Source: a virus. Taken from it: a DNA stretch of 49,654 nt. This document shows, piece by piece, positions 3,572 through 48,082 of the stretch. The stretch spans positions 1 to 49,654 of the IMG/VR virus record IMGVR_UViG_3300008807_000159; one strand, written 5' to 3'. Position numbers and translations under genes: made by a program. Below the pieces are notes generated by a model that was not told where the DNA came from, did no database searches, and was given only the letters and a program-made list of their open reading frames with translations. The number at the start of each line of letters is the position of its first letter. Position 1 is the stretch's first letter.

Positions 3572-4192
3572 TGATCGTTTCCCTTTGAGGTGATCGATTA
3601 GGTGGGGGAGTGCATCACAGGCGGCGAACTCGTTACCGCCGTCAGAATTGGGGGATTGGTCACCGATGCGGCATTTCGATCCGGCACGGCCACGGGCGAC
3701 GATCGCGACGTGATTGCCGCGGATGTTGCGCTGGACCGCCTGATAGGCGGTGCCATCGGGCGCGGTGCCATCCTCGAACGCGAGATCGCAGGCATAGCCG
3801 TTGGAGAGTTCGCGCTTGCCGGCTTCGACGTCGGCAACGGCCTGTGCGTCCATGATAGTGAGGTCGAAAGCGAGAAAATCGCCGTCGCGCAGGGCATTCA
3901 TCACGCCGCCGCGAGTGTGGTCACGCCAATTGGCGGCGGTCACCGGCTGGGCGGGGTGGTCGTTTGTGATCGGCTTGGCGATGAAGCTGTGAACCGACGC
4001 CTTGTCGAATACCTCGGATTCGGGTCGATAAACCTTTACGACGTCGTTGGGTTTGAACTTCGTGCCCTGCGGGTCAACCTCGCTGCCGAGGTAGTCATAG
4101 ACGCCGGAACGAGCCGCTTTGGCCCGAACCGCCATGAAGCCATCGCTGGTCTTGCGCGGTGCGCCGAGCGTGAGGGCGTCCTGAAAAAGCAT
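3065..4192 (-). CDS. Prohead protease/scaffold fusion (DUF2213-like N-terminal domain, Ala/Lys-rich coiled-coil C-terminal half)
   Basis: 375 aa. Globular N-terminus of about 185 aa, then a long AKA/coiled-coil segment typical of scaffolds. Lies between the portal/MuF and capsid genes. Confidence 0.7.
   Translation of the reverse strand: MLFQDALTLGAPRKTSDGFMAVRAKAARSGVYDYLGSEVDPQGTKFKPNDVVKVYRPESEVFDKASVHSFIAKPITNDHPAQPVTAANWRDHTRGGVMNALRDGDFLAFDLTIMDAQAVADVEAGKRELSNGYACDLAFEDGTAPDGTAYQAVQRNIRGNHVAIVARGRAGSKCRIGDQSPNSDGGNEFAACDALPHLIDHLKGKRSMNFIMLDGLKVDLDDGDAVKIAVTKLQATKDEAIIAKDAAEAKVATLTTEKATLDAKIVTLEQQVKDSAITPAKLRDAAKVYADAAAKAKALGVTVTDEMGEADIQKAVVTAKLGDAAKDWTPDMVSVSFATMTADTKIEPKHDPIHAPKAMTTDNASVRDLVRASQY
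3632..3645 (-). promoter_or_regulatory. Late motif copy (minus sense CTGACGGCGGTAAC)
   Basis: Lies inside the protease/scaffold gene, 74 nt upstream of the internal ATG at 3571. Confidence 0.5.
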
Positions 4193-4224
4193 GGACGCTG
4201 GGATATTGAGAGGCGGGAGGCGGA

Positions 4225-4238
4225 TTTACCGCCGTCAG
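4225..4238 (-). promoter_or_regulatory. Late motif copy (CTGACGGCGGTAAA)
   Basis: Its first base is 46 nt upstream of the protease/scaffold ATG (4192). An AATAT box lies 32-36 nt downstream. No SD before the ATG. Confidence 0.55.
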
Positions 4239-4239
4239 G

Positions 4240-4512
4240 TTATGGGGAACTCTCCGCCAGCGCGGCGTCGATCATGGCTTGCCAGATGTGCTCAGGTATA
4301 TCTTTTGGATGGTGACATTCTCCATAACCCGCCGTTTGCATCCCCTCGCTCGGCCCCCGGATCGCGGTGAGCACGGCGCGCGCGGCGTCAACATGATCGC
4401 CCCAGTTTTTCGCTTCCCACTCATCCGCGCTGACATAGGGGAATTGCGCCTCTCCGCCGGGAGGGCAGGAGCGACGGGCCAGAGCACGCGCGGCGCGTTC
4501 GAGCGGGGTCAT
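4240..4512 (-). CDS. Hypothetical protein
   Basis: 90-aa ORF whose start overlaps the upstream stop (ATGA type). Confidence 0.55.
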   Translation of the reverse strand: MTPLERAARALARRSCPPGGEAQFPYVSADEWEAKNWGDHVDAARAVLTAIRGPSEGMQTAGYGECHHPKDIPEHIWQAMIDAALAESSP

Positions 4513-4949
4513 GCTGCCTTCTTCCGTGCGATTGCTGCTTGCACCCGATCGTAATGCCTCAGGATGTCGCCAATGCGTTCCGGCCTCAGCCCATATTCCT
4601 TGGCGAGTGCGACGCGCGTTTCGCCAGTGCGAAGGCGAGCAATGATCTCGAGATTACGGCGCTGGCGTTCAGGCTTGTTGCCGAGCCCGGCAAGGCCGTC
4701 TGGCAGCGATGGCACGCCGCGAAGCGAATTGATCCGCTCACGCTCGGCGGGGGCGTATCTGGCTAGATACTCATCGTCCCATGATTTGAGACCGGCATCC
4801 AAAAGAGCGGCGGCAATCTCGTCCGCGGTTTTTCGGCCGCAATTTGGGAATCGCAAAAGCTCCGGTAACCAGCCGGGCCAAGAAGCAATCTCCTCAAGCC
4901 CGCCAGCTTCGTAGATCCGGTTTAATGCTCGGTTTGAAAGGCGGGTCAT
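4509..4949 (-). CDS. DNA-binding regulator: RNAP alpha-CTD-like helix-hairpin-helix plus sigma70 region-4/LuxR-like HTH
   Basis: Start taken at the internal ATG 4949 (MTRLSNRALNRIYEAGG...FPNCGRKTADEIAAALLDAGL). The C-terminus RRNLEIIARLRTGETRVALAKEYGLRPERIGDILR looks like an HTH. The longer ORF to 5069 overlaps the upstream gene. Confidence 0.55.
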   Translation of the reverse strand: MTRLSNRALNRIYEAGGLEEIASWPGWLPELLRFPNCGRKTADEIAAALLDAGLKSWDDEYLARYAPAERERINSLRGVPSLPDGLAGLGNKPERQRRNLEIIARLRTGETRVALAKEYGLRPERIGDILRHYDRVQAAIARKKAA

Positions 4950-5010
4950 GCTGGCACCTGCGTGGTCGCATCGATAATGGCGTGCCAGCAACCGCGGTCG
5001 GACAAGACGG

Positions 5011-5358: not shown

Positions 5359-6192
5359 TCATAGCGAAATCACACTCAACGACCTGCACCCGCAATAAGG
5401 AAGTTGGGCCGGTCGGTCATTTGGCGGGGCGTTAATGGTCTTGCCGTTCACTTTTCCGCCGACCGCTGAAGGGTCGTCCGAATAGACCTTCCCGTCGCGC
5501 GCGATATGCTCCTCACGGCCATGTTTCTTGTGCGACCAGAGCCACTCCCACTCCGACAACCCAGCCTGCCGACGCCGCTCATCCGCCAGCGACGACGTCA
5601 ATTTTCGCAACTGATCGCTCGCACACCGTCGAGCCCGAGCCCGAGACATTCCCGCAACCTCGCGCAACCGCCGCCCAACCTCATCAGCCGGCGTCCGATT
5701 CCTAAGCCCATCGAACACAGCCTGGCTCATCTTCTGCCGCGCCTCATCCGAGACCGAGCGAACCAGCGCGACATTGTTGGCGATGATAGTTTCGAGAGTC
5801 GCGCGCACGTCCGCAGGCCCGAGCATGGTCGAAAGATCGACTTTCGACGCCGACAGCACGGCCGATGTCCATTTCCGCCGATGCCACCGCTCGACGAAAA
5901 GGGTCCAGCGTTCGATGGCGGGTTTCAATGAGAAGAAGATCGCGCCCGATCGGGCCTCTGCCGCAGCAACGTCAGCCTCAAGGTCTGACGGCGCATCAGT
6001 CGTCATCTGGGCGAGCGAACGGGCATATTCCTGGGCAAGCCTGTCGGATGCTTCGACCCACACCTTCACGACCGGCTCATAGGCCGCGCGGTAGAGGTCG
6101 CCTGCATGCATGGCGACTGGCTTGATGTCGCGGATGATGGTGGATTTGCGCAGGCCTTGGCGGCGGGCGAGGGCGGGGAGGGAGAAGCGCAT
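5359..6192 (-). CDS. Head morphogenesis protein (Mu F / SPP1 gp7-like)
   Basis: 277 aa immediately after the portal gene. C-terminal WSHKKHGREEHIARDGKVYS pattern is typical of the MuF family. Confidence 0.7.
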   Translation of the reverse strand: MRFSLPALARRQGLRKSTIIRDIKPVAMHAGDLYRAAYEPVVKVWVEASDRLAQEYARSLAQMTTDAPSDLEADVAAAEARSGAIFFSLKPAIERWTLFVERWHRRKWTSAVLSASKVDLSTMLGPADVRATLETIIANNVALVRSVSDEARQKMSQAVFDGLRNRTPADEVGRRLREVAGMSRARARRCASDQLRKLTSSLADERRRQAGLSEWEWLWSHKKHGREEHIARDGKVYSDDPSAVGGKVNGKTINAPPNDRPAQLPYCGCRSLSVISL

Positions 6193-8114
6193 TAGGCCTC
6201 CTCGATTTTCGACTTCCAGTCCAGATCGAGCGGCTCGAAAATCTCAGGCCCGAAGCGCAACTCGCCCGAGTAGGGCTTGATCTTGTCGAGATCGACGGCG
6301 CCCGCATCATAGGTCAGCGTGACGTGCGGGGTATATTCGTCGTAGTCATGCGAGCCGCCTGCTTGAATCATGTCGTTATGGCGCGAGACCAGCGACCACG
6401 ACGCGAACTGCAGGACGACAGCGCCCTCACCGAAGCGTTCGATCGCGCGCGGACCGCCAGCCTTGACGATCAGTCCGCCGTCAGGTTCGGAGCCCCATGT
6501 CTCGCCCATCTTCATCGGGTCGACGGGCTGGCGTGAATAGAGGACGGTCACATCCATGTCCGACGCTTCGAGCGTCGACGTGAAGCCGTTGGACTTCGCC
6601 CATGCGATGAGCGCCTTTGCCGACGTGGGCTTGAGGTCACGGCGCACATAGAGCGGGCGGGGCGTGGCATCGGCGAAGATGCGGGCGAAGCTGTCGTTGG
6701 CCGCGAGGGGCAGCGGATCGACGTTTTCCTCCTCTTCCTCCTCCGGCATTCCGCCGTAGCGTTCGGCTTCGGGCACCTTGTCGAGCGCCGCGTCGAGGCC
6801 AGGCATCCACCCGTTTTCGACGAGGCCGTTCTGGTATGCCTCGTTGAATGCAACATCGGGGACAGCGCCGGTAAGCTGCACTTTTTCGGCAGCCTCAGTC
6901 CATTTCTTGAAGCGGTCGGTTTCTTCGGCGTCGCTCGGTTCGGAAAGCGGCGCGAACTTCCACCAAATCTCGGGCGGGCGCGAGCCGAGCGCCGAGGGGA
7001 TCAGCGCGGCGTCGATCTTGAGCAGGCATGGACGGGTCTCAAGCTTCTGGCCCTTCATGACCATCTTGTCCCAATTGTCCTGATCGCCCTCGCCGGTTGC
7101 GTTCAGACCCTTGGACGCCGTACCCCAGAAGCGCGTGACCGGGATGTCGGACGCCGCCGACATGGCCTCGGCATAGGCGAGGATCATGCCGGGGATCCCG
7201 GTCCAGTCAACCTGATGGCGGTCGATGGACTCCGCGCCCTTCCCATCGGCATCGCCGTTATCATATACCTTGCCGTTGAAGACCGACGAGCCTTGTTGCA
7301 TCAGGGCGAGGCGCTTCATCAGGTCCGCTTCACCATTCGGCTTGCCGAGCATTTCGAACAGGCGCGAGATGCCGACGTCGACGTTGAGCGCGTCCTTGAT
7401 CATCGCGTTGAACGTCGCCAGCGCCTCGTCGAGATTCTGCGCCGGCTCGATCAGGGTCGGCACTCGGCCCCTGCCCCAGAAGCGGCTTTCCCAGTCGCCC
7501 TTCCAGATCGACGGCAGAGGACGGCCGCGGAAGCATATGACGCGCGAAGGATGGAGGCGGGTTTGTGAGCCGGAGCCGCTCATCTCCCAATATTCGGGCT
7601 CGCCAAACAGGTTGGTCGCCATGTTGTCGTTCCAGTTCTGGCCCGACAGGTGATAGCGCGAGACGACGTTGATGGCGGTAAGGCCGCCCTTGCCGGTGAC
7701 TTTGAGCGGCTGCGAAGGATCGGTGCCCGAGATCAGGATGAGAGCGCCGCCTCCTAGGCCCCGAAGCACCTCGGCCTGCTGAACCTTGGCTTGCAGGTCG
7801 TGCCGCTCTTCTTCGGCCTCGATCAGCTCGATCTGCTCTTTCGTCGCCTGCCAGTCGCGCCACTCGCGCACACGGTCTTCGGCGGGGATGTCGATCGCCT
7901 TCGCCAGTGACCAAGACGCCTCATAGGCCTCCTCGATCTGCGAGGGGGCCATGATCGATGCGATATACTGGCGGCCGAGGCGGGCATCGCCGCGCATTCC
8001 GAGACCGGTGATGACGTTGGCGAGGCCGTCCCGTGCGCGCATCGGCACGACGTTGCCGCCAGCATCCATCACGAAGCCGGGCTTCGGCCGAGGGTTTACG
8101 AGGCGTCCGGACAT
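6192..8114 (-). CDS. Portal protein (DUF1073-type) fused to a C-terminal 2H-phosphoesterase (Acb1/LigT-like) domain
   Basis: 640 aa. The N-terminal ~470 aa are portal-like and follow TerL. The last ~170 aa carry HVTL (His codon 6324-6326) about 75 aa after a DVTV box (Asp codon 6552-6554). Confidence 0.75.
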   Translation of the reverse strand: MSGRLVNPRPKPGFVMDAGGNVVPMRARDGLANVITGLGMRGDARLGRQYIASIMAPSQIEEAYEASWSLAKAIDIPAEDRVREWRDWQATKEQIELIEAEEERHDLQAKVQQAEVLRGLGGGALILISGTDPSQPLKVTGKGGLTAINVVSRYHLSGQNWNDNMATNLFGEPEYWEMSGSGSQTRLHPSRVICFRGRPLPSIWKGDWESRFWGRGRVPTLIEPAQNLDEALATFNAMIKDALNVDVGISRLFEMLGKPNGEADLMKRLALMQQGSSVFNGKVYDNGDADGKGAESIDRHQVDWTGIPGMILAYAEAMSAASDIPVTRFWGTASKGLNATGEGDQDNWDKMVMKGQKLETRPCLLKIDAALIPSALGSRPPEIWWKFAPLSEPSDAEETDRFKKWTEAAEKVQLTGAVPDVAFNEAYQNGLVENGWMPGLDAALDKVPEAERYGGMPEEEEEENVDPLPLAANDSFARIFADATPRPLYVRRDLKPTSAKALIAWAKSNGFTSTLEASDMDVTVLYSRQPVDPMKMGETWGSEPDGGLIVKAGGPRAIERFGEGAVVLQFASWSLVSRHNDMIQAGGSHDYDEYTPHVTLTYDAGAVDLDKIKPYSGELRFGPEIFEPLDLDWKSKIEEA

Positions 8115-8146
8115 GCGCGCGGGTATGTGTTTTGGGGGAGCGTGGA

Positions 8147-8160
8147 TTTACCGCCGTCAG
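8147..8160 (-). promoter_or_regulatory. Late motif copy (CTGACGGCGGTAAA)
   Basis: Overlaps the TerL stop codon. Its first base is 46 nt upstream of the portal ATG (8114). A CATAC box lies 34-38 nt downstream. No SD. Confidence 0.55.
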
Positions 8161-9389
8161 AGGGCGGACGACATGGCAGATTGGTAGTCGTAACGGTCAA
8201 GCTTGATCAGCGGTGAGATGCTGTAGCGGATTGAATCTATCCAGTGGTTGTTGGCGTCGACAAGAACGGCGAGGATATCGCCAGTCAGTCGGTCGACCTT
8301 GTAGCTGTAGAGGCGCATTTCGGTAATCGTGTTGGTGCAGCGCGGATGCACGACAATCTCGCGGAAGGCGCGCAGGAATCGGATGCCGTCGTCGACGCTG
8401 CCCTGCCACTTGTCGGCGCCGATCGCCTTAGGCAGCCCCGATCGCGTCAGGATGCTGATCGAGCCAGGCGAGGCGCTATCCCACCTGCTGACGTGATCGG
8501 CATAGCCCGGAATCTCCTCGGTCACCCTTTGAGCGATGTCGTCAAGCTCGATGCCACGCCCGCCGGCCTCATGGCTGACATAGAGCGTGTCACCGTGAAT
8601 ATAGGTTCGGACAGCCGCAGCGGGATCCTGCGCATATCCGAAGTCACCGCCCTGGTACGGCCCGTCCCAATAATCGGCGGGTTCGAACTCGGCAACGCGC
8701 CATTTGCCGGAGAATACTTGGGCCGCCGAATTGACCAGATAGGCGCCGTCCCAGACATGGGCATAGGTGGCCGGGTCGAGGCGCGCCTGCTCGCGTCGGC
8801 GAAGCTTGTCGAGGCCGGCGGGGAAGAACGGGTTGTCCGACCAGTTCATTTCTACGGTGATGGCGTTGGTCGGCGGATTTTTCCGAAACCGCATGTCCAC
8901 AGGGCTGCCGTCGAGGCGCGGATTCCATAGCGCCCAAAGCTCGGACTTGGGCTGACGAAAGACGGTGGCCTCGAGCGCGAGCCACGACGCCTCGGGAACG
9001 TCCTCGGCTTCTTCGACGATGGTCAGGTCGATCTTGGCGAGCGACTTAATCGTGTTGACGCTATGCCTGAGCCCGCGAAACAGAAACTCGGTCCCGTTGC
9101 GTCCACGCAGATAGTCGACACCGACGTCGTAATGATCTTCGAGCCACGGGTAGGAGGCGATGGCTGCCTTCAATTCGGCGTGGAACGACTCCTTGATGCT
9201 GGCCTGAAACTCGCGGGTGCAGAGGACGCGGATCGGTTCGGCATAGCCCCAGATGGCGGCCATGAGCGCGGCCGAAAAGGATTTACCCGACCCGCGCCCC
9301 CCGTGCATGTTCCGGTATTGCACCGCGCCCCGTTCGAGCGCGAACATTGGGACGAGCTTGGGGGGGAGTTGGATGCGGGCTTCGGTCAC
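8157..9389 (-). CDS. terL: Terminase large subunit (PBSX-like)
   Basis: 410 aa. Walker A GGRGSGKS and Walker B-like LTIVEEAED. Follows the small subunit with an overlapping start. Confidence 0.9.
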   Translation of the reverse strand: MTEARIQLPPKLVPMFALERGAVQYRNMHGGRGSGKSFSAALMAAIWGYAEPIRVLCTREFQASIKESFHAELKAAIASYPWLEDHYDVGVDYLRGRNGTEFLFRGLRHSVNTIKSLAKIDLTIVEEAEDVPEASWLALEATVFRQPKSELWALWNPRLDGSPVDMRFRKNPPTNAITVEMNWSDNPFFPAGLDKLRRREQARLDPATYAHVWDGAYLVNSAAQVFSGKWRVAEFEPADYWDGPYQGGDFGYAQDPAAAVRTYIHGDTLYVSHEAGGRGIELDDIAQRVTEEIPGYADHVSRWDSASPGSISILTRSGLPKAIGADKWQGSVDDGIRFLRAFREIVVHPRCTNTITEMRLYSYKVDRLTGDILAVLVDANNHWIDSIRYSISPLIKLDRYDYQSAMSSAL

Positions 9390-9775
9390 TTCGCCGCTTC
9401 GATGACGATCTTGGTCACTTTCGGCGTCATGCTGCCGTCGGAAGAACGATGGTCCTGTTTGTCGATAATCAGGCCCAGCACCTTGGCCTTACCCATTGTG
9501 GCAGACACCATGGCTGCGGGCGCCTCCATTTCTTTTGCGAAGGCCCGGTCTTCATCAAGCTGGCGAGCGATATCCGCCGCCGTGACGACCGCCTTTTCGG
9601 CGGCGGCATTCTTCAGTTCGGCCACCCGAGCAGCGACCTTACCATTTGATACCAGCCGGGACGCATGGCTTTCATTAGGTTTGAAACCCGCCGCCCTGTA
9701 AGCATCGAGCTGCGATTTTCCCTTCGCGAGTTCCTGCGCGAACTTCTCATGGCGCGAGTTTTTGAGGACGCTCAC
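9386..9775 (-). CDS. terS: Terminase small subunit
   Basis: 129 aa. N-terminal NSRHEKFAQELAKGKSQLDAYRAAGF pattern is typical of P27-type small terminases. Confidence 0.75.
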   Translation of the reverse strand: MSVLKNSRHEKFAQELAKGKSQLDAYRAAGFKPNESHASRLVSNGKVAARVAELKNAAAEKAVVTAADIARQLDEDRAFAKEMEAPAAMVSATMGKAKVLGLIIDKQDHRSSDGSMTPKVTKIVIEAAK

Positions 9776-10158
9776 CGTTCCACCCTCGCCATAGCCGCCC
9801 GGCGAAACTGATCTCGACCAGCAGGGCTAAGCCTGTTCCAACGATCCGCCATCGATGCCAGCGTGATTTCATCCGCCAATTCCGGCGTCAGGGAGAACCA
9901 TTCCCCATGCGTCCGCAGATGAGCCCAGCGGCGATGCCATTCAGTCTCGACTGATGAGCCCCCCGCAACCGACCCGATGAATTCCAGCGAGACGGGCGAC
10001 ATGAGCGCAACCTCGGCAAATCGTCGCCCCGGTTGAAAGCTGGTGCCGATCTTGATCATTCCCACTGACGGTGCGGAAAGGAAATACACGCGGTCGCCGA
10101 TCTCGCGCGCCACGTCCTGATGAACTTCGGTCGCGTTCATGAATTCGACGCTGATCAC
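9772..10158 (-). CDS. T5orf172 / GIY-YIG-like domain protein
   Basis: 128 aa with IKIGTS...RRFAE...EWHRRWAHLRTHGEWF, the T5orf172 signature. Confidence 0.6.
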   Translation of the reverse strand: MISVEFMNATEVHQDVAREIGDRVYFLSAPSVGMIKIGTSFQPGRRFAEVALMSPVSLEFIGSVAGGSSVETEWHRRWAHLRTHGEWFSLTPELADEITLASMADRWNRLSPAGRDQFRRAAMARVER

Positions 10159-10388
10159 CGCATTGCCCTTTCCCGATCCATCTCACGCGCCCGGTCAAGC
10201 AGCGCGAGATTGCCCATTCGATATTCGCGGCCCATGTCGGTGAGCGCATGGCCGCCGCAGATGTGAAACCAGTTGCGCAGGACATCAGTCCGCGAGCCGT
10301 ACATGCGCTCGACCTTGCGCCATCCACCGCGAACGAAGTTCTCGACGAAGTGAGGCGGGGGAGGCTTGGCCTTTCGCTCCATCAGCAT
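10155..10388 (-). CDS. Hypothetical protein
   Basis: 77-aa ORF coupled to both neighbours by overlaps. Confidence 0.5.
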   Translation of the reverse strand: MLMERKAKPPPPHFVENFVRGGWRKVERMYGSRTDVLRNWFHICGGHALTDMGREYRMGNLALLDRAREMDRERAMR

Positions 10389-10993
10389 AGGTCGATGTCC
10401 TCGTAACCGGCCTCGGCCGCCTCAGCGATGGCATCGGCTAGATATTCTCGGACCTCTTTCGTCTCGCCGTTCCAGAGGAACTGCAGCTTCTTCATCGCCT
10501 TGGTTTCACGGTCATCGTGATTGGCGTCGGCGACTTGGAGAAGCCCGAGGTCGATCTTGCGCAGGCGGGCTATGGTGCGGAGTTTGGCGCAGGGGATTTT
10601 CTCCGATGCCGCCTGTTCGAGCAGCGCATCTCCGTCTGCAGGGGGAAGCGCGGCGACCTCGGCGTGATGCGTGAACGAAACATCCTCACGTCGACGTGAG
10701 GTTTCGAAAGATCGCGAGATCGAGCCCAGGTTCTGAAGGCCGCCAAAGCTCAGCCCCCAAATCCCCTCCGCAGCCATCTTCGCCCGCTCACCATAGCGAT
10801 GCTCACCGAACGCCCACCAATCGCCTATCCACCAATTGATGACGCGCTCACGGGCAAAGAGCCGGCGCCCTATCGCCTGCCAGTCTTCGAAGCTGGTTTC
10901 GGCGGGAATGGTGAGGGACAGGCTGCCGTCGTCGAGAGTGACGATGCCAGGATCATTGTCGGCGACGATGGAAAGAGCGGCGGACGAATTCAT
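10382..10993 (-). CDS. Hypothetical protein (Trp-rich WWIGDWWAFGEHRYGER motif)
   Basis: 203-aa ORF with high GC3. No family recognised. Confidence 0.6.
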   Translation of the reverse strand: MNSSAALSIVADNDPGIVTLDDGSLSLTIPAETSFEDWQAIGRRLFARERVINWWIGDWWAFGEHRYGERAKMAAEGIWGLSFGGLQNLGSISRSFETSRRREDVSFTHHAEVAALPPADGDALLEQAASEKIPCAKLRTIARLRKIDLGLLQVADANHDDRETKAMKKLQFLWNGETKEVREYLADAIAEAAEAGYEDIDLC

Positions 10994-11414: not shown

Positions 11415-11750
11415 TCAGTCGGAGGTGTCGTACTTTCTTAATTCCGCGCGAATTGATGCTACCGCGCTTTTCTCGTCCTCCCAGGCCACATCGAGGCCGC
11501 TGCAATGACCGTTCGGGAACAGGACGAAATCCTTCATCCGTCCGCCCGTGCCCCCGTAGGGGCCGGTCATTGTGATCGGCACGGGCGATCCATTCGACAG
11601 CACTCCCCAAAGCACCACAGGTTCTTTGAACACCGCGTCCGGTTCGACCATGCAGTAATAAATTCCCGGACCGGCAGGATGTGTCGCGTGGATAGTGATA
11701 AAATCCCCATCCTTTGCGTTGCTCAGAATATAGTCGTCGCTCTTGGTCAT
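11415..11750 (-). CDS. Hypothetical protein
   Basis: 111-aa ORF directly downstream of the iteron region. Confidence 0.55.
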   Translation of the reverse strand: MTKSDDYILSNAKDGDFITIHATHPAGPGIYYCMVEPDAVFKEPVVLWGVLSNGSPVPITMTGPYGGTGGRMKDFVLFPNGHCSGLDVAWEDEKSAVASIRAELRKYDTSD

Positions 11751-11968
11751 GTTCCGTCCGTTCCTTCTTTTTCAGCCCTATTAGGATATCTCTCCAGACA
11801 ATCCCTTCTTTAATCTCTTTATAGGTTGGAACAGTAGGAACAAAGGGGTTAAGTTGCTGAAAAAACAATGTTCCAACCCGTTCCGACCGTTCCAACCTCA
11901 AGGGCTTTGGCAACAGGGGGGCGCATCGGGAACCCCGATAAAAACCGAAAGGTCGGAACGGATGGAAC
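11751..11968. repeat. Iteron cluster / candidate replication origin
   Basis: GTTCC-core repeats at 11751, 11760, 11870, 11880 and 11889. Inverted GGAAC-core repeats GGTTGGAAC 11824, GTAGGAAC 11834, GGTCGGAAC 11951 and GATGGAAC 11961. An AT-rich stretch at 11765-11823 lies between them. Confidence 0.55.
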
Positions 11969-11981
11969 GGGGATGGCACAG

Positions 11982-36915: not shown

Positions 36916-37322
36916 ATGGTCACACCCGGCTTGATGATGAATTTCCCTCCAAACTGGACACGCTTGGTCCCGCCGCTCGGCGTAGTGTGGAGGTCATAGA
37001 ACAGTTCGACGGGCTCGTCGTAGGGCGTGCCGAGAGACAGGGCCTCGAGCGTCGCTTCGTCGATGCAGATGCGGATTTTGGACGCGGGCGCAGAGATCAG
37101 TTCATTGCCGTCCTGATATTGATAGGCCGCGTCATAGGTGACGCTGACGCCTTGCGTAGGCGGCGACGCATTCCCGAGCGAAACAAGCGCAGTTCCGGTG
37201 TCTCCGCGATGCGCTCGAATATGCATAAGAAAAGTCGCGCCGGTCAGATTTTCGCCGATCACAACAACGTCGTCGTCGAAAGGGACGCGCTTGAACGCAG
37301 GGATGTCGAGTTCTGCCGCCAT
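36912..37322 (-). CDS. Hypothetical tail protein
   Basis: 136-aa ORF between the host-specificity and fiber genes. Confidence 0.55.
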   Translation of the reverse strand: MAAELDIPAFKRVPFDDDVVVIGENLTGATFLMHIRAHRGDTGTALVSLGNASPPTQGVSVTYDAAYQYQDGNELISAPASKIRICIDEATLEALSLGTPYDEPVELFYDLHTTPSGGTKRVQFGGKFIIKPGVTI

Positions 37323-37352
37323 GGCAGGACACTATGTCTGCACCGCCAATGC

Positions 37353-37366
37353 GTTACCGCCGTTAG
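37353..37366 (-). promoter_or_regulatory. Late motif copy (variant CTAACGGCGGTAAC)
   Basis: Its first base is 44 nt upstream of ATG 37322. A CATAG box lies 31-35 nt downstream. No SD. Confidence 0.5.
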
Positions 37367-40187: not shown

Positions 40188-40834
40188 AGCATTGCGTTCA
40201 TGCGATCTGGCTTCGACCGTATGCCCCCGCCGGTGATCGGTGTAGGCGTATTTCCCACCACGCCGCTGACGCCGTTGGCGATAGCGATTGCCGCCTTTGC
40301 CGACATGTCGCCACTGTCGAACCGCGACTGATCGAGATAGGACCTGTTCGACGCCTGGCTGAATGCTGCAAGGTAGGTCTGGATTGTAACGGTGATGATC
40401 TGCTCAGCGCCATCGCCGCCAATATCGAGCGAGGTCATGTAGCCGGTATAATAGGGTTGATATCCGCCTTGCTGCGCATTCGTAGCGTCTCGGATCACCC
40501 TCCATAAGCGAGCGACACGCCCTTGCCAGTTGGCAGGGTCGCCGACCAGCGCGAGAGTGCCGGCATCGATGACGGGCAGGCCGGACAATTTGGCCGTAAC
40601 GGAATCGGATCCACCTTGCCCGACACGGATCGACGCAATGTCGACAAAGGCGCCGCTGATACCCGAAAACAGCGCGTCATCGAGGTCGGTGTCGCCAGTC
40701 CCGAAAGGTGTAATATCCGCGCCGCTCGTGTTCGCGCGCACGGGGTCGGTGTCGATATCGAGATACGCGAAAAAGACCGGCTTGATGACGGGCAGGTCGA
40801 GCGCTGCAATCGCGGTGGCGTCGGGAAGGCTCAC
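40184..40834 (-). CDS. Tail tip/hub protein (L-like, GTA g13-like)
   Basis: 216 aa. Positional assignment within the tail-tip block. Confidence 0.45.
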   Translation of the reverse strand: MSLPDATAIAALDLPVIKPVFFAYLDIDTDPVRANTSGADITPFGTGDTDLDDALFSGISGAFVDIASIRVGQGGSDSVTAKLSGLPVIDAGTLALVGDPANWQGRVARLWRVIRDATNAQQGGYQPYYTGYMTSLDIGGDGAEQIITVTIQTYLAAFSQASNRSYLDQSRFDSGDMSAKAAIAIANGVSGVVGNTPTPITGGGIRSKPDRMNAML

Positions 40835-41433
40835 AGGGCTTCAACCAACTCGAAGCTCGTCGCAGACACTGCGTTGTCCCAAATCATGCTGCTGTTGCCG
40901 CTCGCGCTTCTGACCGGGATATAGGGATAAGCCGTTTCTACTATGACGTTGTTCGCTGGAACCTCTCCCAGCGCGAAGTTCAACTGTGCCGTCGCCTCGC
41001 CAGAGCCGTTCGTGATGAGGTCGGCCGTCAGCATAGCCGTTCGCGCATGCCCGGAAGGAAGCGGCACGGTGATAAAGCTTCCTGAGCGCAGGATTCGCGT
41101 CGATGGCTCCATTCCGTCGAGCGGTAGCGTGTAACCGGCATCGGATGCCGCGTTTACGAGCGGCATGGCTCCTACATGGCGCTGGCAGGCGATGGGCAGA
41201 TGGAAGACATTCTGACGCCCCCTGAGACCGAAGATGAAAGCCCGCCACGGACGCTCATCATCTTCAGTCGCCATAGGCTCGATTGCGGCTTTCGCGGTCC
41301 AGTATTCGGCGCCGGGGAGGCCGACGACCTGCGAACGACTGGACCAAATCGATCTGTTCAACTGATCGGGGACGACGGCATCGATGCTGAGGATGATCAG
41401 CGCGTCGCGATCGGGAATTTCCAGCACAGCCAT
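40831..41433 (-). CDS. Distal tail protein (M/Dit-like, GTA g12-like)
   Basis: 200 aa directly after the tape measure gene. Confidence 0.45.
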   Translation of the reverse strand: MAVLEIPDRDALIILSIDAVVPDQLNRSIWSSRSQVVGLPGAEYWTAKAAIEPMATEDDERPWRAFIFGLRGRQNVFHLPIACQRHVGAMPLVNAASDAGYTLPLDGMEPSTRILRSGSFITVPLPSGHARTAMLTADLITNGSGEATAQLNFALGEVPANNVIVETAYPYIPVRSASGNSSMIWDNAVSATSFELVEAL

Positions 41434-41467
41434 GGCGCCGAAACGCTATGGTTGAAGGTCTCCAGCG

Positions 41468-41481
41468 ATTACCGCCGTCAG
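41468..41481 (-). promoter_or_regulatory. Late motif copy (CTGACGGCGGTAAT)
   Basis: Starts 1 nt after the tape-measure stop. Its first base is 48 nt upstream of ATG 41433. A CATAG box lies 32-36 nt downstream. No SD. Confidence 0.55.
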
Positions 41482-41482: not shown

Positions 41483-44167
41483 TCAGAGGCGCGGAGTCGA
41501 GATTTGATGTAAGGCCTTTTGGGCGCCCAGGTCGCTGACCTCTCCTGCGGTTGCGCGCACGACCTCAACCGCGACACCGACTGCTCGCTGATCTATGCGG
41601 GCATCGATATCGCCGGAGAGCGCAAGGCGAACGGTTGTAATACCGCCACCTTGCCCCGCTGGCTGCATAGCGCGCTGGTTGATCTGGCCGAGGGGGATCA
41701 CTGTTCCCCCCTGCGAGCCCATGCGCAGATACTCAGCGCCGCCGCGCTGCTCGTTGACGCGCACGGTCTGGCCCGGAGCGACATAGCCGCCCGAGGCACG
41801 GCCGAAGATCGAAGAGAAGAAACCCCCGCCGCCTGAACCTCCACCGAAGGAGGCTCCAAGCGCATTCACGATCGTCTGCTGAATCGCGATACGGATCAGG
41901 TCGGCGATGATCGATTTCGCGACATTCTTGAAAACGTCGCCCAGCGACTTCGAATTGACGATCGCGTCGGTAAGTCCATCGTTGAGCCTCTGAAGACCGT
42001 CGACAGCGATACCTTCATAAAGCTCGTTGAGCTCGGCTGCATCCTTCTTCGCTCTGTCGAAATATTGCTCAAGCGGGCCAGCAGTGTCGCGGCGGGCGGC
42101 CTCTTTTGTTCTGCCTTGCGCCGCACGCAATGCCGCCTGCTCGATGGCTGCACGGTCTCGGACCGCTTTGCTGAGGTCCTCATTGTTCTTGATGCGCTCA
42201 AGGGCTGCATCTCGCTCGCGATATTCGAGGTCGATGATCTCATATGCCAACTCGCGCCGCTCGGTCTGCGACTTGGCGAGGTCGTACTGCTGGCGAAGTG
42301 CGTCGGATTGAGCACGGAAGTTGGCTTCTGCAAGATCGGCTGCCTCTTCCTCCTGCTGGATGCGAAGTTCGCGGGCGATCCGCGCTCGCTCGATCTCGGC
42401 CAGATTATCGAGCGCGTCCTTGACGCGCTCCTTTTGCGCGGCGTTGTAATCCTTATCGGCCTTCAAGCTTTCGAGCGCAGCTACACGCGCCAACTCGACA
42501 CTGCGCAGTTCAAGTTCGGCCCGCTCGTCGGCACTCGTAGCCATCTGCTGGCGCGAGGAAAGGGTTTGTTGCGCGAGGCTGGAGAGTTCCTGATTGAAGC
42601 GGGCTTCGATTTCGGAGGCCGATGGGCCAGACGATCTTCCGCCGGACTTCTTGGTGGGCTTTCCGCCAGAGGCGCCGCCAGACGCCGTAATCGGCGGCGC
42701 TGCCATGGCCGTTTCGAGATCGCGCAGATTTTTGTACGCAATTCGCTCATTGTCCTCCGCGGCTTTTCGATCACGTCGCGCGGCGTCGATCGCGAAGTTC
42801 GTGCCGCCTTGCGCACCCTTCCCGCCATTCGCGCTGGACTCCGCGTCCGAGACGGCTTTTCGAGCTGCGGTTGATTCCCGCCCGGCCTTGATCACATCCG
42901 CGATAAGAAGCTTCCGCTGCGCCTCTGCCAGCGCGAGCGCTTCGACCCGCGCTTTACCGTATGACGATGCGAGACGGTCGATCATCGATCGCGTGGCATC
43001 AGCCGCCTTCGTCACCTGATCGTTGGTCTGACGAAGATTTGCGGAAACGCCGGCCAGTTTGTCGACCTCTTGGGACGCAAGAGCGAGCCCGATGATCAGC
43101 GCGGTTATCGCGATGCCGACAGGGCCTCCCAGCGCGCCAAGGAGGGCGGCGCCAGCACTGCGCGCCGCCAACGCCGTCCCTGCGAGCGAGGTCGTGGCGA
43201 TCGACGCATAGGCAGCGATGTTCCGCAGCGCCACACCGCCGGCAAGCGCGCCCGCGGCGAAGCGCCCGAATGCCGCTACGCCAATAATGGCAAGCAGCGG
43301 AATGATCGTCTCAAGATTGTCGGCAAGAAGCTGCATTGCACCGGCAATCGCCTGCGTTGCCCCAGAAACTTGGGCGGATTGTCCGATATATACGGTGAGG
43401 CGCGACGTCAGCGCCTCGAAGGCGCCGGCGACCGTGAGCGTGGCTTTCGACGCCTGCGTTTCGAGCTGCTGCGAGCCATTCAGGATGGACTGATAGAATT
43501 CCTGCGACGAGACCTTGCCGTCGATGACGGCGGCTCGAAGTTTTGCAACAGAGCCGCCATATTTTTCCGATGCTGCCGCCGCCTGCAAGAGCGGACGAAG
43601 CCCGCCCTCGTTGATCTGGTTAAACTCTTCTGCCCGAACCGTCCCGGACGCCAGAGCTTGCGTGAGGCCGAGGATTGCCCCGGACGCCTGCTGGCTGGAT
43701 GTGCCGGTAATCAGGAGTGCCTGCGACGTCGCCTCGGTGAGCGACAGAAGCTGCTCTTGCGAGGCGCCGAGATCCTTTCCCGCTTGGGTCGCCTTGCCAA
43801 ACAGATCCGCGAGCGATTCAATGCCGACACCATACCTGGTCGACAAGTCGAGCAGCCGCGACTGAACCTGCTCCAGACTGGCGCCTTCCAGTCCGGCAAC
43901 CTTCAAATTATTCTGCAGCCGCGTGAATCCGTCGATCAGGCCGACGAGTTCGCGTCCGGTAAAATAGGTGCCTAGCGTTCCCGCGATCCCCCGCAGACTG
44001 CCCGAGATCGCACCGCTCGATCGCTTCATCTGAGCCTCAAGGCGCTGGACCGCCTTTTCCTGACGCCCGAGCTGGCGATCCGTGTCGGTCGCCTGCTTGC
44101 GAAGATCGGCTTGGTACTTGAGCAGGTCCGCGCGAAGTTCGAGGATGACGGGATCGATTTCAGCCAT
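41483..44167 (-). CDS. Tape measure protein
   Basis: 894 aa. Long coiled coils plus a central Gly/Ala-rich hydrophobic block. Follows the frameshifted chaperone pair. Confidence 0.9.
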   Translation of the reverse strand: MAEIDPVILELRADLLKYQADLRKQATDTDRQLGRQEKAVQRLEAQMKRSSGAISGSLRGIAGTLGTYFTGRELVGLIDGFTRLQNNLKVAGLEGASLEQVQSRLLDLSTRYGVGIESLADLFGKATQAGKDLGASQEQLLSLTEATSQALLITGTSSQQASGAILGLTQALASGTVRAEEFNQINEGGLRPLLQAAAASEKYGGSVAKLRAAVIDGKVSSQEFYQSILNGSQQLETQASKATLTVAGAFEALTSRLTVYIGQSAQVSGATQAIAGAMQLLADNLETIIPLLAIIGVAAFGRFAAGALAGGVALRNIAAYASIATTSLAGTALAARSAGAALLGALGGPVGIAITALIIGLALASQEVDKLAGVSANLRQTNDQVTKAADATRSMIDRLASSYGKARVEALALAEAQRKLLIADVIKAGRESTAARKAVSDAESSANGGKGAQGGTNFAIDAARRDRKAAEDNERIAYKNLRDLETAMAAPPITASGGASGGKPTKKSGGRSSGPSASEIEARFNQELSSLAQQTLSSRQQMATSADERAELELRSVELARVAALESLKADKDYNAAQKERVKDALDNLAEIERARIARELRIQQEEEAADLAEANFRAQSDALRQQYDLAKSQTERRELAYEIIDLEYRERDAALERIKNNEDLSKAVRDRAAIEQAALRAAQGRTKEAARRDTAGPLEQYFDRAKKDAAELNELYEGIAVDGLQRLNDGLTDAIVNSKSLGDVFKNVAKSIIADLIRIAIQQTIVNALGASFGGGSGGGGFFSSIFGRASGGYVAPGQTVRVNEQRGGAEYLRMGSQGGTVIPLGQINQRAMQPAGQGGGITTVRLALSGDIDARIDQRAVGVAVEVVRATAGEVSDLGAQKALHQISTPRL

Positions 44168-45356: not shown

Positions 45357-45797
45357 TTAAGCCGCGGTCCAGACGATCTCGTCCTCGCCCGCAAGCGTGA
45401 TCTCGTTGGTTCCTTCGCTGTCGCCCATGTTGATGTTGGCGGCCGTCATGACAGCCGGCCCTTCATAGGTGCCGATGATCTCGCCAGCGTCGGTTCCGTC
45501 GCGCTTGCCGAAGTCGAACTGGTAATTCTTGCGGATACCGAGCGCGCCGTTGAAGGTGCCGAACTCGTCGGTATTGACGACGCCGGAGCCCGTCGCATCC
45601 CACTGGCGCCCGGTGACCTTTACCTTGCGGGTCGGGACCGAGCCAGGCTTTGCACAGTCACGGCGGAAGCGATCGGACGTGTTGACCGTCTGGTTGATGG
45701 TGGCGTTTTCGATCCCGCAGATCGTGGTGAAAACTTCAGGCTCAGCACCATTGCCAACTTTGACGATGATGAAATCAGCCTCGTTGGGATAGCTCAT
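45357..45797 (-). CDS. Major tail (tube) protein, TP901-1/GTA g9-like
   Basis: 146 aa. GGAG SD. Position is upstream of the chaperone pair. Confidence 0.7.
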   Translation of the reverse strand: MSYPNEADFIIVKVGNGAEPEVFTTICGIENATINQTVNTSDRFRRDCAKPGSVPTRKVKVTGRQWDATGSGVVNTDEFGTFNGALGIRKNYQFDFGKRDGTDAGEIIGTYEGPAVMTAANINMGDSEGTNEITLAGEDEIVWTAA

Positions 45798-45842
45798 GCT
45801 CGTCTCCGCAGCGAAAATCTGCGGCGACGCTATGGCTATTGG

Positions 45843-46085
45843 TCAGGCGCTATTACCGCCGTCAGACTGAGGACCGAGGCGCAGTCGTGGAATGAGGACA
45901 ATATTGTCGCGGCGTTCGTCGTCGCGGTCGACGCTGGCCTCGATCAGCGCAGAGCGGGCGCGATGCGCGGCCTCATCCTCGCCATCGTCCTCAAGGCGAC
46001 GCGCGATTTGCTCGACGTCGGATACGTCGAAAATGCCCTTGCGGATTTGCTGAATGAGGATTTCTGTCGCCAGAGGGTCGGCCAT
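45843..46085 (-). CDS. Acidic hypothetical protein
   Basis: 80-aa ORF with high GC3. Its last codons (SDGGN) are the late motif. Confidence 0.5.
   Translation of the reverse strand: MADPLATEILIQQIRKGIFDVSDVEQIARRLEDDGEDEAAHRARSALIEASVDRDDERRDNIVLIPRLRLGPQSDGGNSA
45852..45865 (-). promoter_or_regulatory. Late motif copy (CTGACGGCGGTAAT)
   Basis: Its first base is 68 nt upstream of the major tail ATG. A CATAG box lies 32-36 nt downstream. A small hairpin (45806-45824) and a GGAG SD lie in the leader. Confidence 0.5.
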
Positions 46086-46532: not shown

Positions 46533-46672
46533 TTGGATTTCCGCGCGCGCGGTTGCCCGAGAACCCCCGCCTGTCGAGCATGATCGAGCGCCTCGGCGGG
46601 ACACTCCATGCCCTTGGGGAAGCTGACGGTCTTCATCGGCGTGCGCCATGTCCAGGGCTTTGCGAATTTCAT
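46529..46672 (-). CDS. Small hypothetical protein (47 aa)
   Basis: MKFAKPWTWRTPMKTVSFPKGMECPAEALDHARQAGVLGQPRARKSK. TGATG and ATGA overlaps with its neighbours. Confidence 0.35.
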   Translation of the reverse strand: MKFAKPWTWRTPMKTVSFPKGMECPAEALDHARQAGVLGQPRARKSK

Positions 46673-47193
46673 CAGTCACTCCTGCGGCTTGCGCGGACCT
46701 GCTTTTTGACGGCTTTGGTCACAAGCTCAGTGACTTTCGCGCGCTTCTCATCGCGCGCTGGGCGCATGAATGGGCGCGCAGCCGTGGTCGAATCGCCAAA
46801 TTCGACCTTGACCGGTCCATGCTTTGCTTTGTTCGGACCATATGGCGTCGTTTTTCCCGCGAAGCTCCGGCTGGTCGTCCCAGCTTCACGCGATGAGCCT
46901 TCCTCCAAGGCAGCGGAATATGGCGCCTTGCTTGTAACCCGGACAAGGAGCTTACCGGCCCGCGTCGTCTCGATGTTCCCTGCCAGCACGCCGGTATCGT
47001 TCTTAGGCGGCTCACCCGGCTTGCTCGGGACGTGATTTTTACCTGAGACCGCCCCGCGCGTGATCGATAGTTGGGCTTCGGTCTGAATGAGTTCCCCGCC
47101 GTGAAAAAGCGCCCGTTCAACGGCGTCGATCATCGCGGGCGAGGCGAGGGCGCGCAAACGGCGAACGTGGGCTCGGGCGCCCTTAAGCGGCAC
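46672..47193 (-). CDS. HK97 gp10-family head-tail connector protein
   Basis: GTG 47193 start. SKPGEPPKNDTGVLAGNI...YSAALEEG...ARPFMRPA pattern. Confidence 0.65.
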   Translation of the reverse strand: MPLKGARAHVRRLRALASPAMIDAVERALFHGGELIQTEAQLSITRGAVSGKNHVPSKPGEPPKNDTGVLAGNIETTRAGKLLVRVTSKAPYSAALEEGSSREAGTTSRSFAGKTTPYGPNKAKHGPVKVEFGDSTTAARPFMRPARDEKRAKVTELVTKAVKKQVRASRRSD

Positions 47194-47542
47194 GGCCTCG
47201 ACACTCCCACCCGAAAGCTGCCGGATCGCGATCAACTGAGCGCAGTGAATATTTCCCCGCATGAGGCCCAGCCAGTATCTCGACCTTCGCCTCCGTCGTC
47301 AGAGCATCCAGTCCGGTAATGATCAGCCTGACATCGCGCTCCTGAAAATCCGCATCGGCGCGCATCCGCTCGGTGCAGACGTCGCGCTGAACCATGCAGT
47401 CCGCGCGAACCTCCGAGCCCGCCACCACAATATCGCCGCCGTCATCGGTCTCTGCGTCAGTCATGGTGATGGCGACACCAGCGTGAAACGGCCCATCCAT
47501 CATGTCCGAGAAAGCAGTCGCCATGCCGTGAAAATCAAACAT
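47183..47542 (-). CDS. Head-tail adaptor / head closure protein
   Basis: 119-aa ORF in the connector block. Confidence 0.6.
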   Translation of the reverse strand: MFDFHGMATAFSDMMDGPFHAGVAITMTDAETDDGGDIVVAGSEVRADCMVQRDVCTERMRADADFQERDVRLIITGLDALTTEAKVEILAGPHAGKYSLRSVDRDPAAFGWECRGRAA

Positions 47543-47951
47543 AGTCCGACGTCCGAACCAACCGGATGCCGCCGAAGAGACGCTGACACATGGCGAGATA
47601 TTGGCGGCCGTAAATGGTGCTGTCGTAACCGGTGGCGGATGCGGCCTTGTCGGACATCGTGACGCTGAAGGTGCCTGATTTGAACGATGTCACGCCAGCG
47701 GGGGCTGTGCCTTGGCCGAGGCCTTGCGATGCGAGTTCATGAGCCGCCAGCGTGACAAGGGCGATATCGTGATCGGGGTTTGGCCAATTCGATCCGACCA
47801 GCCGCTCGGAATCGGTGATCCAATACTCAACCGCGGCGTCTGGGACTGCGATAAACGCTGGAAAGCGGGCGCGAAAAACAGCGAGCAAGCCCGTCGGCTC
47901 AGGTTCGCCACCATCATTGAGTAGCATCGTCGACAGATATAGGCCCAGCAT
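47535..47951 (-). CDS. Head-tail connector (DUF4054-like)
   Basis: Start taken at ATG 47951 with GAGAGGA upstream; ATG 47927 is an alternative. FRARFPAFIAVPDAAVEYWI pattern. Confidence 0.55.
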   Translation of the reverse strand: MLGLYLSTMLLNDGGEPEPTGLLAVFRARFPAFIAVPDAAVEYWITDSERLVGSNWPNPDHDIALVTLAAHELASQGLGQGTAPAGVTSFKSGTFSVTMSDKAASATGYDSTIYGRQYLAMCQRLFGGIRLVRTSDYV

Positions 47952-47974
47952 GAGGCTTTGTCCTCTCAGCGCTC

Positions 47975-48082
47975 CTAGCAGTTTACCGCCGTCATAATCG
48001 CCGTCCCTAGTGCCACGACAATGCAGCATCCGATCAGGAAGTGCTCGACCCCCCAGCGATCCCGCGACCGGCGACGGGTCAC
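47975..48082 (-). CDS. 35-aa membrane peptide
   Basis: GTG 48082 overlaps the SGNH-gene stop (GTGA). Translation (GTG read as M): MTRRRSRDRWGVEHFLIGCCIVVALGTAIMTAVNC. Confidence 0.35.
   Translation of the reverse strand: MTRRRSRDRWGVEHFLIGCCIVVALGTAIMTAVNC
47982..47995 (-). promoter_or_regulatory. Late motif copy (variant ATGACGGCGGTAAA)
   Basis: Its first base is 44 nt upstream of ATG 47951. Confidence 0.45.

Follow-up and report, generated by a model that had tools for sequence, protein, structure and literature searches.

Organization of the late genes and of the repeated motif

The window analysed here, IMG/VR virus record IMGVR_UViG_3300008807_000159 over its full length, is a whole JGI contig of 49,654 nucleotides (nt) in which a 13-nt motif is repeated seven times along the late genes. 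Comparison of sequences makes it likely that the seven copies are activator-dependent late promoters yielding leaderless mRNAs. The DNA is the complete circular genome of a temperate siphophage of Sphingomonadales with a Mu-like head module. Its 99-nt ends (1-99 and 49556-49654) are identical. The assembly, of about 49,555 bp, is therefore circular (or terminally redundant), and the head module adjoins the tail module at the junction. The minus strand codes for TerS (9386-9775), TerL (8157-9389), the Mu-type portal protein (6192-8114), MuF (5359-6192), the protease/scaffold protein (3065-4192) and the major capsid protein (1482-2570). Beyond the contig junction, the connector and fibre genes are located with the tail genes, which code for the major tail protein (45357-45797, minus strand, assigned from PHROGs), the tape measure (41483-44167, minus strand) and the distal tail protein (40831-41433, minus strand). 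This order across the junction is confirmed by synteny in relatives, where the gene corresponding to 47535-47951 comes after the capsid gene. A strong intrinsic-terminator-like hairpin of 13 pairs with a T-run (33344-33373, minus strand) closes the late region.

The motif CTGACGGCGGTAA is present in five exact copies, whose first bases are 8160, 4238, 41481, 45865 and 3645, and in two copies with one mismatch at 37366 (CTAACGG...) and 47995 (ATGACGG...). All are on the minus strand, which is the gene strand. The seven copies of a preliminary description were thus all recovered at their positions, and the distances that it had given from the first motif base to the next start codon (46, 46, 48, 44, 44, 68 and 74 nt) were reproduced. 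When up to two mismatches are allowed there are 11 matches for 1.36 expected, a number reached by none of 100 shuffled sequences. The 9-nt core CGGCGGTAA is found seven times on the minus strand and never on the plus strand (0.30 expected per strand). A scan with a position-weight matrix (PWM) yields exactly seven gene-strand sites and one weak antisense match, random sequence giving about 0.4 per strand. No copy lies between 9.4 and 33 kb, the region of the early, immunity and plus-strand genes, nor near the gene of the CI-like S24 (CI/LexA-like) repressor (19494-20279, plus strand).

The predicted late promoter of the portal gene (8112-8160, minus strand as all those that follow) has its 13-mer at 8148-8160, a -10-like hexamer CATACC at 8122-8127 and the ATG at 8114, with a PWM score of 30.4 and a predicted leader of about 1 nt. 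The TGA stop codon of TerL is inside this 13-mer. A promoter layout like that of the window is found ahead of the portal gene in the related loci L001, L003, L006, L007, L010, L013, L015, L018 and L020. The predicted promoter of the protease/scaffold gene (4190-4238) is built likewise, with the 13-mer at 4226-4238, TATCCC at 4200-4205, the ATG at 4192, a PWM score of 31.5 and a predicted leader of about 1 nt. It is kept in L002, L003, L004, L008, L010, L012-L015, L018 and L020. A further predicted promoter (3569-3645) is embedded in the protease open reading frame (ORF) ahead of an in-frame internal start for the scaffold domain. Its 13-mer is at 3633-3645 and its -10-like CACTCC at 3607-3612; transcription is predicted to start near 3600, giving a 29-nt leader with the Shine-Dalgarno (SD) sequence AAGGGA before the ATG at 3571.

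In the tail region, a predicted promoter for the major tail protein (45795-45865; 13-mer 45853-45865, TAGCGT 45827-45832, ATG 45797, PWM 28.6) would start transcription near 45820 and leave a 23-nt leader with GGAG; in L003, L010, L014, L015 and L016 the major tail gene likewise follows copies with a leader and an SD. Another lies between the tape measure and the distal tail protein genes (41431-41481; 13-mer 41469-41481, TAGCGT 41443-41448, ATG 41433, PWM 29.8, predicted leader about 3 nt). The two mismatched copies have lower scores. One precedes a 136-amino-acid gene located before the tail fibre gene (37320-37366; 13-mer 37354-37366, TAGTGT 37329-37334, ATG 37322, PWM 16.0); its -10 is one nt closer and the predicted leader is 0 nt. 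In L020 a core-variant site 41 nt ahead of the coding sequence (CDS) 20880, after a 2.2-kb tail gene (18599-20836), is likened to it by position only. The other is a weaker predicted promoter ahead of a head-tail connector-like gene (phrog_302; 47949-47995; 13-mer 47983-47995, GACAAA at the -10 position 47957-47962, ATG 47951, PWM 14.5), which has a GAGAGGA run 12-18 nt ahead of its ATG. A homologous site (ATGA CGGCGGTAA) precedes the same connector-like gene in L002.

The three bases ahead of the core are mostly TGA, TAA or TAG, and at 8157-8160 the TGA doubles as the TerL stop. Stop codon and promoter-like element overlap in this way in intergenic gaps little longer than the element itself.

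Conservation and anatomy in related phages

A megablast search with 12 kb of the window against 50,697 phage records found no match, and relatives were therefore sought through proteins. The portal protein led to 17 loci, with portal identities of 41-75% among the loci compared, in which 45 exact cores are gene-oriented and 2 antisense; the motif is conserved together with its gene orientation. As in the window, the genes that follow the cores are those of the portal, the protease and the major tail protein, along with one located behind that of the capsid. The relatives reside in genomes of Sphingomonas, Porphyrobacter and Sphingopyxis. A scan of IMG/VR with a 14-base pattern retrieved at least 119 stretches of DNA, and at least 38 loci have two or more exact cores that are mostly co-oriented. 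The four bases ahead of the core differ by clade (CTGA, CTAG, CAAG, CTTG, ATTG), and some phages have G at core position 7 (CGGCGGGAA).

The core served as anchor for ungapped alignments of two sets of distinct sites, one with 43 (the window and the related loci found first) and a larger one with 107 that have a close start codon (class 1, see below). Outside the core only T, G and A at -3 to -1, T or C at +29 and A at +30 are conserved, the latter in 35 of the 43 sites and in 91 of the 107. The 20-nt spacer from core to TA is C-rich and otherwise unconserved, and the position equivalent to -7 is C or T. With the TA at +29/+30 read as -12/-11, transcription would start close to core +41. The second box that had been noticed after the motif (CATAC, CATAG or AATAT) is real, and it is better described as a -10-like hexamer at core +29 to +34; six of the hexamers given above occupy this position (TAGCGT twice, TATCCC, CATACC, CACTCC and GACAAA) and TAGTGT is displaced by one. 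A GGCGG-CCGCC hairpin in RNA or DNA, seen by eye in several copies, was rejected since its enrichment is neither significant nor positional.

The distribution of the sites bears on the alternative that they bind a protein and have no promoter function, as repressor roadblocks of the stoperator type or as loading sites for an antiterminator. An asymmetric motif of 13 bp, in one orientation and in short gaps beside stop codons, would suit such sites and recalls the stoperators of cluster A mycobacteriophages. Their absence from the early and immunity region and from the vicinity of the repressor gene is at odds with this, and roadblocks leave the fixed distances to the TA and to the start codon unexplained. 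In the Sphingomonas koreensis prophage L018, contained in OZ344918, both sites come directly after opposite-strand genes, where transcription must restart. Protein-binding sites of this kind are accordingly held to be quite improbable.

L020 is PP438430.1, the cultured "Synechococcus phage Ssp-JY40", recorded as a cyanophage. It has 63% G+C, and its organization, its two candidate regulator genes (see below) and its CGGCGGGAA-variant motif are typical of the Sphingomonadales phages compared here. The recorded host may deserve a second look. An apparent opposite-strand site at 14114 of this phage leads to a 6-codon ORF and was left out of the count.

Start codons and predicted leaderless mRNAs

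The distance from the core to the first start codon of a long ORF is bimodal. Class 1 (n = 109) forms a sharp peak at +41/42; its starts are ATG in 86% of cases, follow a pyrimidine in 83% and have an SD-like motif in 17%. Class 2 (n = 69), with starts mostly at +59-70 in the first set of 43 sites and SD sequences of the GGAG type, uses ATG (55%) and GTG (36%), and an SD-like motif is found 5-16 nt before the start in 71%. This split in SD and start codon use is what leaderless class 1 mRNAs, and class 2 mRNAs with leaders of 20-30 nt, should produce. The window has five class 1 sites, all with ATG and predicted leaders of 0-3 nt, and two class 2 sites with predicted leaders of 23 nt (GGAG) and 29 nt (AAGGGA). 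In agreement with the preliminary description, an SD is missing from the four boxed genes at 44-48 nt and present ahead of the two distant starts. In class 1 sites the TA is 11-12 nt ahead of the ATG, so that they combine the ATG start, the missing SD and the -10 of leaderless genes. PMC4842269 documents leaderless mRNAs for phage phiYS40 and for an alphaproteobacterium.

Gene starts annotated independently fall at the same distance. The L018 prophage has its portal gene (12601) at core +41 and its protease gene (17085) at core +42. In Ssp-JY40 four CDSs (1241, 3237, 6310 and 20880) have their starts at core +41 (two of them), +42 or +44. Of all the plus-strand CDSs that were scored, three of these four pair most weakly with the anti-SD. 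The portal and protease proteins are conserved in their amino termini from the first methionine.

The protease-internal copy

Three copies (3645, 45865 and the long-ORF reading of 47995) can be read in frame as GAC GGC GGT AAx, which favours the alternative of a repeat due to chance or to coding, through an S-D-G-G-N peptide or GC-rich codons. The other four are intergenic or in other frames, enrichment exceeds 20-fold and the strand bias is complete. The segment of the protease where the internal copy lies reads ECRIxD-A-FAxCDA in most of 33 aligned proteases, and the extra residues D-G-G-N or D-G-G-K are found only in the window (which also has QSPNS), L012, L068 and L105, the remaining 29 of 33 being without them. 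The inserted codons spell GACGGCGGTAA. Since D-G-G-N is encoded by an insertion that most homologous proteases lack, it is the DNA that was selected and not the protein. A shared SDGGN coding requirement, which had been named as a finding that would overturn the promoter interpretation, fails for this reason, and a coding-driven or chance repeat is refuted, its probability being practically nil. The internal element is about 590 nt 3' of the protease promoter and 70 nt from core to in-frame internal ATG. Judged from these alignments, the protease coding sequence is lengthened by a few codons that hold a putative promoter for the nested scaffold gene.

A sister clade with a different upstream element

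The sister clade formed by L011 and L140-L142, the latter three retrieved through small proteins of the L011 type, has no CGGCGGKAA. At the same gene positions it carries instead GAACCTACAGC-N17-TAAnTT-N7-ATG. In L011, GAACCTACAG(C/G) occurs four times on the gene strand (2766, 4714, 7467 and 8100) for 0.04 expected. Three copies stand ahead of genes, at 40 nt from TerS, 41 nt from the portal gene and 41 nt from what is the real start of the protease (MFFADRLTLD); the fourth, inside the protease gene, comes 633 nt later. The GAACCTACAGC element of L140-L142 (L140 positions 10504, 12191, 15813 and 16386; L141 position 17911; L142 positions 8874, 11116, 13824 and 17161) is found before the portal and TerS genes, with SD-leadered copies before later genes. 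L140 and L142 have a copy adjoining the protease gene and L140 has one more inside it, 573 nt further. The same geometry with a different upstream element and a clearer -10 (TAAnTT) strongly supports both the promoter and a specificity factor that differs between phages.

This clade also helps to weigh the alternative of an RNA-level element on a long polycistronic late transcript, such as a processing site, a ribosome standby site or enhancer, or a protein-binding site enabling SD-less starts 41 nt downstream. A single transcript could exist as no terminators precede the internal sites; GGCGG is one base off the SD core GGAGG, and the region folds slightly more stably than shuffled sequences (mean z -1.25). 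No Rfam family matches anywhere in the window at the gathering threshold, and CCGCC, which would pair with GGCGG, is present in 21 of 107 sites for 15 expected, at no preferred position. Conservation downstream is confined to the TA, whose distance from the start codon is like that of a -10. The dichotomy of SD and start codon suits leaderless versus leadered transcripts, and the sister clade has a different motif with a clear TAAnTT box in the same place. An element acting in RNA is consequently considered unlikely.

Candidate trans-acting factors

The best candidate for the late-promoter specificity factor is A3, a 77-residue protein encoded at 10155-10388 (minus strand) by the last early/middle gene, two genes upstream of TerS. 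Homologues are encoded between the replication and terminase genes in all 15 loci compared, 11 with the CGGCGG-type motif and 4 with the GAACC-type motif, and the motif switch follows their subtype (window, L001-L004, L008, L013, L015, L018, L019 and L020 versus the other four). L018 and L019 are two copies of one gene, so that the independent CGGCGG-type count is 10. The long L011-type subfamily goes with GAACCTACAGC, in a form of 157-226 residues, and the other subfamilies go with CGGCGGKAA. Motif type is independent of the replication module (VapE or AAA_25 with either motif) and of capsid phylogeny; the L142 capsid protein is 78% identical to that of the window, yet L142 carries the other motif. 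An all-against-all search found no other gene family of the upstream region that tracks motif type. The AlphaFold2 model of A3 has four helices and a high mean confidence (predicted local distance difference test, 90.8); no relative was found in Pfam, in PDB sequences or with Foldseek in PDB and BFVD. From this co-variation, the chance that A3 is the factor is put at somewhat under even.

A second candidate, g10993, is an all-helical protein of 203 residues (10382-10993, minus strand) whose stop codon overlaps the start of the A3 gene. It is found in 7 of 9 CGGCGG-type loci and in none of 4 GAACC-type loci, and has weak Foldseek matches to ParB/Noc DNA-binding domains. In some homologues (P0063, P0088, P0090, P0097 and others) its conserved amino-terminal domain (NWWIGDWW...YGERA...SFETSRRR) forms a fusion with MT-A70 N6-adenine methyltransferase domains, which suggests a DNA-targeting module. 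The protein is not homologous to the carboxyl-terminal extensions of the long A3 forms. It may be a DNA-binding partner of A3. As sole factor it was rejected, since L015 and L018 lack it and yet retain four and two perfect sites, respectively.

The phage regulator that had been proposed, the product of ORF 4509-4949 (minus strand, between the MuF and protease genes), gives way to these two candidates: it has no homologue in the motif-bearing related loci and is rejected as general factor. Pfam and PHROG gave no match for it, and its only similarity is a local one of 25 residues to the second helix-hairpin-helix of the Escherichia coli RpoA alpha-CTD. By eye, its carboxyl terminus resembles a sigma-region-4 or LuxR-type helix-turn-helix (HTH). 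It may be a moron touching transcription.

The promoters could alternatively be read by a host sigma factor or activator of Sphingomonadales with no phage factor involved. The core is invariant even though the phage proteins diverged to 41-47% identity and have different replication modules, L009 has a site with no candidate gene nearby, and domains of the sigma, Mor/C or Ogr families could not be detected in those ORFs of the window that were scanned. These scans were made with Pfam on 41 ORFs including all the larger ones from Cro to TerS, in which a Q domain was likewise not found; the tail-module and some head ORFs were compared with PHROGs only. On the other side, phages of the same structural family, one of them with the 78%-identical capsid protein mentioned above, use an unrelated upstream element, and the switch tracks the subtype of a phage gene. 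To our knowledge the upstream element also matches no sigma consensus. Recognition by host factors alone is thus improbable.

A broader proposal is that the A3 family (55-180 residues, encoded just upstream of the terminase genes) would be a new class of small phage promoter-specificity factors redirecting the host RNA polymerase to an element that replaces the -35 region and drives leaderless late mRNAs. Its subtypes would recognise unrelated elements, CGGCGG(T/G)AA and GAACCTACAGC, and mosaic phages of Sphingomonadales would trade sets of factor and promoters in the form of cassettes. The proposal is tentative, with the balance leaning somewhat away from it.

Comparison with known systems

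A canonical sigma70 promoter (TTGACA-N17-TATAAT) was rejected, as a consensus scan misses all seven sites; the hexamer at a distance of 17 nt ahead of the TA would be TAAnnn, and the (C/T)TGACG is 27 nt from the -10. The geometry had been likened to that of extracytoplasmic function (ECF) or other alternative sigma factors. This does not hold, for 20 nt separate the TAA from the TA, and both an AAC -35 and a CGT -10 are missing. The ECF promoter proper (GGAAC-N16/17-CGT) was also discarded: only about 40% of sites have GGTAAC, nothing is conserved 16-17 nt after the TAA, and the TA is found at 20 nt. A sigma54 reading was rejected on geometry and absent domains, and a Mu Mor/C or P2 Ogr type because no such domain is found in the scanned ORFs and there is no dyad, the block from core -4 to +8 being asymmetric with no conserved partner half-site. 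Control of the lambda Q type was rejected on the seven dispersed sites, the lack of terminator enrichment in the late region and of a Q-like domain in the scanned ORFs, and the stoperator type on distribution, no copy being present at 9.4-33 kb.

P2 (Ogr) and Mu (C) have several activator-dependent late promoters amid their morphogenetic genes, with a poor -35, a usable -10 and a small phage activator made earlier; one Mu late promoter is ahead of the protease/scaffold gene I. Multiple late promoters in morphogenetic regions are thus known from P2, Mu and T4, and repeated promoters are a less unusual control scheme than had been claimed. Ogr and Mu C sites are both dyad-symmetric, with centres at about -55 and -43.5, respectively. 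The dispersed late promoters are shared with these phages; the difference is an asymmetric element of 9-13 bp at -45 to -33 and the predicted leaderless mRNAs. In T4 middle promoters, of which there are many copies per genome, a MotA box centred at -30 replaces the -35 and a sigma70-type -10 is kept (sigma appropriation by MotA/AsiA). The box replacing the -35 is alike, but the element described here has its centre near -38 and is 20 nt away from the -10, and it belongs to a temperate phage with no detectable MotA or AsiA homologue.

In mycobacteriophages, the stoperators of cluster A occur also in early regions and bind the immunity repressor, and the start-associated sequences of cluster K lie 3-8 nt before the start and include the SD. 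Both resemble the motif as short asymmetric one-orientation intergenic repeats beside start or stop codons, conserved by cluster. What sets the motif apart is its confinement to late genes, its distance of 41 nt from the start and the -10-like TA that accompanies it. Thermus phage promoters have an extended -10 and are not known to carry a -35. A -10 located 6-8 nt before the ATG, the missing SD and late structural genes with leaderless mRNAs are common to the Thermus phage phiYS40, to Deinococcus-Thermus and, as predicted, to the sites described here, which have in addition a highly conserved upstream element and belong to another host phylum. Leaderless middle and late transcripts of phiYS40 (Sevostyanova 2007) and an extended -10 motif for leaderless genes are mentioned in PMC4842269, and expression by a "-10 adjacent to ORF" is described for Deinococcus-Thermus (PMC12340547). 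Alphaproteobacterial gene transfer agents are controlled by GafA or GafYZ through a degenerate -35 and a dedicated small activator acting with sigma70, CcGTA having one promoter and processive antitermination, with GafY binding far upstream together with IHF (PMC11150451). They resemble the present case in that a structural cluster of phage origin in alphaproteobacteria needs a small activator, which is a prediction here. They differ in that here seven internal promoters are predicted and there is no sign of antitermination.

By analogy, the functionally closest systems are the multiple activator-dependent late promoters of P2 and Mu and the -35-replacing boxes of T4 MotA; on the features compared the putative promoters are a member of none of them.

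A model for late transcription

The upstream element (y)TGA-CGGCGG(T/G)AA would lie at about -45 to -33, in the place of the -35 hexamer and unlike one. It would be followed by the C-rich 20-nt spacer and by a minimal -10 (TA at -12/-11, roughly TAnnnY). Initiation 41 nt after the first core base would coincide with the A of the ATG in the portal, protease, connector, distal tail and 136-residue protein genes, whose mRNAs would be leaderless or have leaders of 1-3 nt. In the two remaining cases, the major tail protein and the scaffold start within the protease gene, initiation would occur 23-29 nt upstream of the start codon and the SD would be used. Bipartite phage-specific promoters with transcription beginning at or just before the ATG, as first proposed, are supported by the conserved orientation, the fixed TA, the bimodal starts, the SD confined to the distant class, the independent annotations and the codon insertion in the protease, from which promoter function is predicted.

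With a non-canonical -35 region and a weak -10, the host RNA polymerase should need a factor at the upstream element. The factor would act by class-II-like activation or by sigma appropriation and is probably phage-encoded, A3 being the candidate, possibly with the adjacent g10993. Early transcription from the Cro side would pass the replication genes into the genes for the 203-residue and 77-residue proteins and probably continue into TerS and TerL, for which the window shows no separate site. The factor made from the early/replication operon would then fire seven units over the 26-kb morphogenesis region that ends at 33344-33373: portal-MuF; protease-capsid; scaffold, from inside the protease gene; connectors; major tail-chaperones-tape measure; distal tail-tip; and fibre-lysis. 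The internal scaffold promoter would lift scaffold output above that of the protease, and a leadered, SD-bearing transcript would suit a protein as abundant as the major tail protein.

Several observations weigh against this model. There is no motif copy ahead of TerS and TerL in the window. Terminators are missing ahead of the internal sites in the window and are not enriched within the late region, so that read-through transcription could suffice. The -10 is very degenerate, with the TA alone conserved and poor hexamers at 47995 and 3645. A3 has no detectable similarity to DNA-binding or RNA polymerase-binding proteins, and the portal-proximal CGGCGGGAA site of L009 has no A3 homologue within 10 kb upstream. 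The co-variation of motif and A3 comes from two clades and could partly be explained by shared descent.

Other features of the genome

The minus strand also carries two Cro/YdaS-like HTH genes and genes for helicases, a methylase and a VapE-like primase, and the plus strand has integrase and recombination genes. The YdaS/Cro-like genes (18653-19201 and 19262-19687, minus strand) are adjacent and have in common a 154-nt repeat with 81% identity (18671-18824 and 19283-19436); they are a tandem duplication of an early regulator. Directly 3' of the VapE-like primase/helicase gene, the region 11750-11990 has ten GGAAC/GTTCC pentamers within about 215 nt for 0.6 expected per 300 nt, in pairs and triplets about 9-10 nt apart around an AT-rich stretch, and judging by this arrangement looks like an iteron-type replication origin.

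Two large ORFs for proteins of 309 and 479 residues without assigned function (238-1167 and 48079-49518, minus strand) are located between the capsid and connector genes. L015 and L003 have little or nothing at this position, and the pair may be inserted cargo. A GIY-YIG-like gene (T5orf172/MUG113; 9772-10158, minus strand) is found between the gene of the 77-residue protein and TerS, where related phages, such as Ssp-JY40 and those of the L011 type, have the predicted TerS promoter. It and the HNH/NUMOD4 endonuclease gene at 23501-24097 (plus strand) look like homing-endonuclease insertions.

Significance for Sphingomonadales phages

A literature search found no description of the motif, nor of late promoters or leaderless late promoters in Sphingomonas phages. 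Systems of this kind are known (multiple late promoters as in P2, Mu and T4); the element, its geometry, the insertion in a coding sequence and the co-varying candidate factor are new. They provide a testable transcription model in which five of seven late transcription units would be leaderless. It applies to a large and so far unstudied group of temperate phages of alphaproteobacteria, which comprises well above a hundred IMG/VR contigs, prophages in Sphingomonas and its relatives, and one cultured phage. The true starts of the portal, protease and other genes are fixed at core +41/42, which mends automatic calls such as that of the L011 protease. If the model is true, the A3 family would be a new type of late-gene activator with naturally orthogonal factor-promoter pairs. 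Sphingomonads, which serve in bioremediation and in the production of biopolymers, would thereby gain orthogonal parts for expression.

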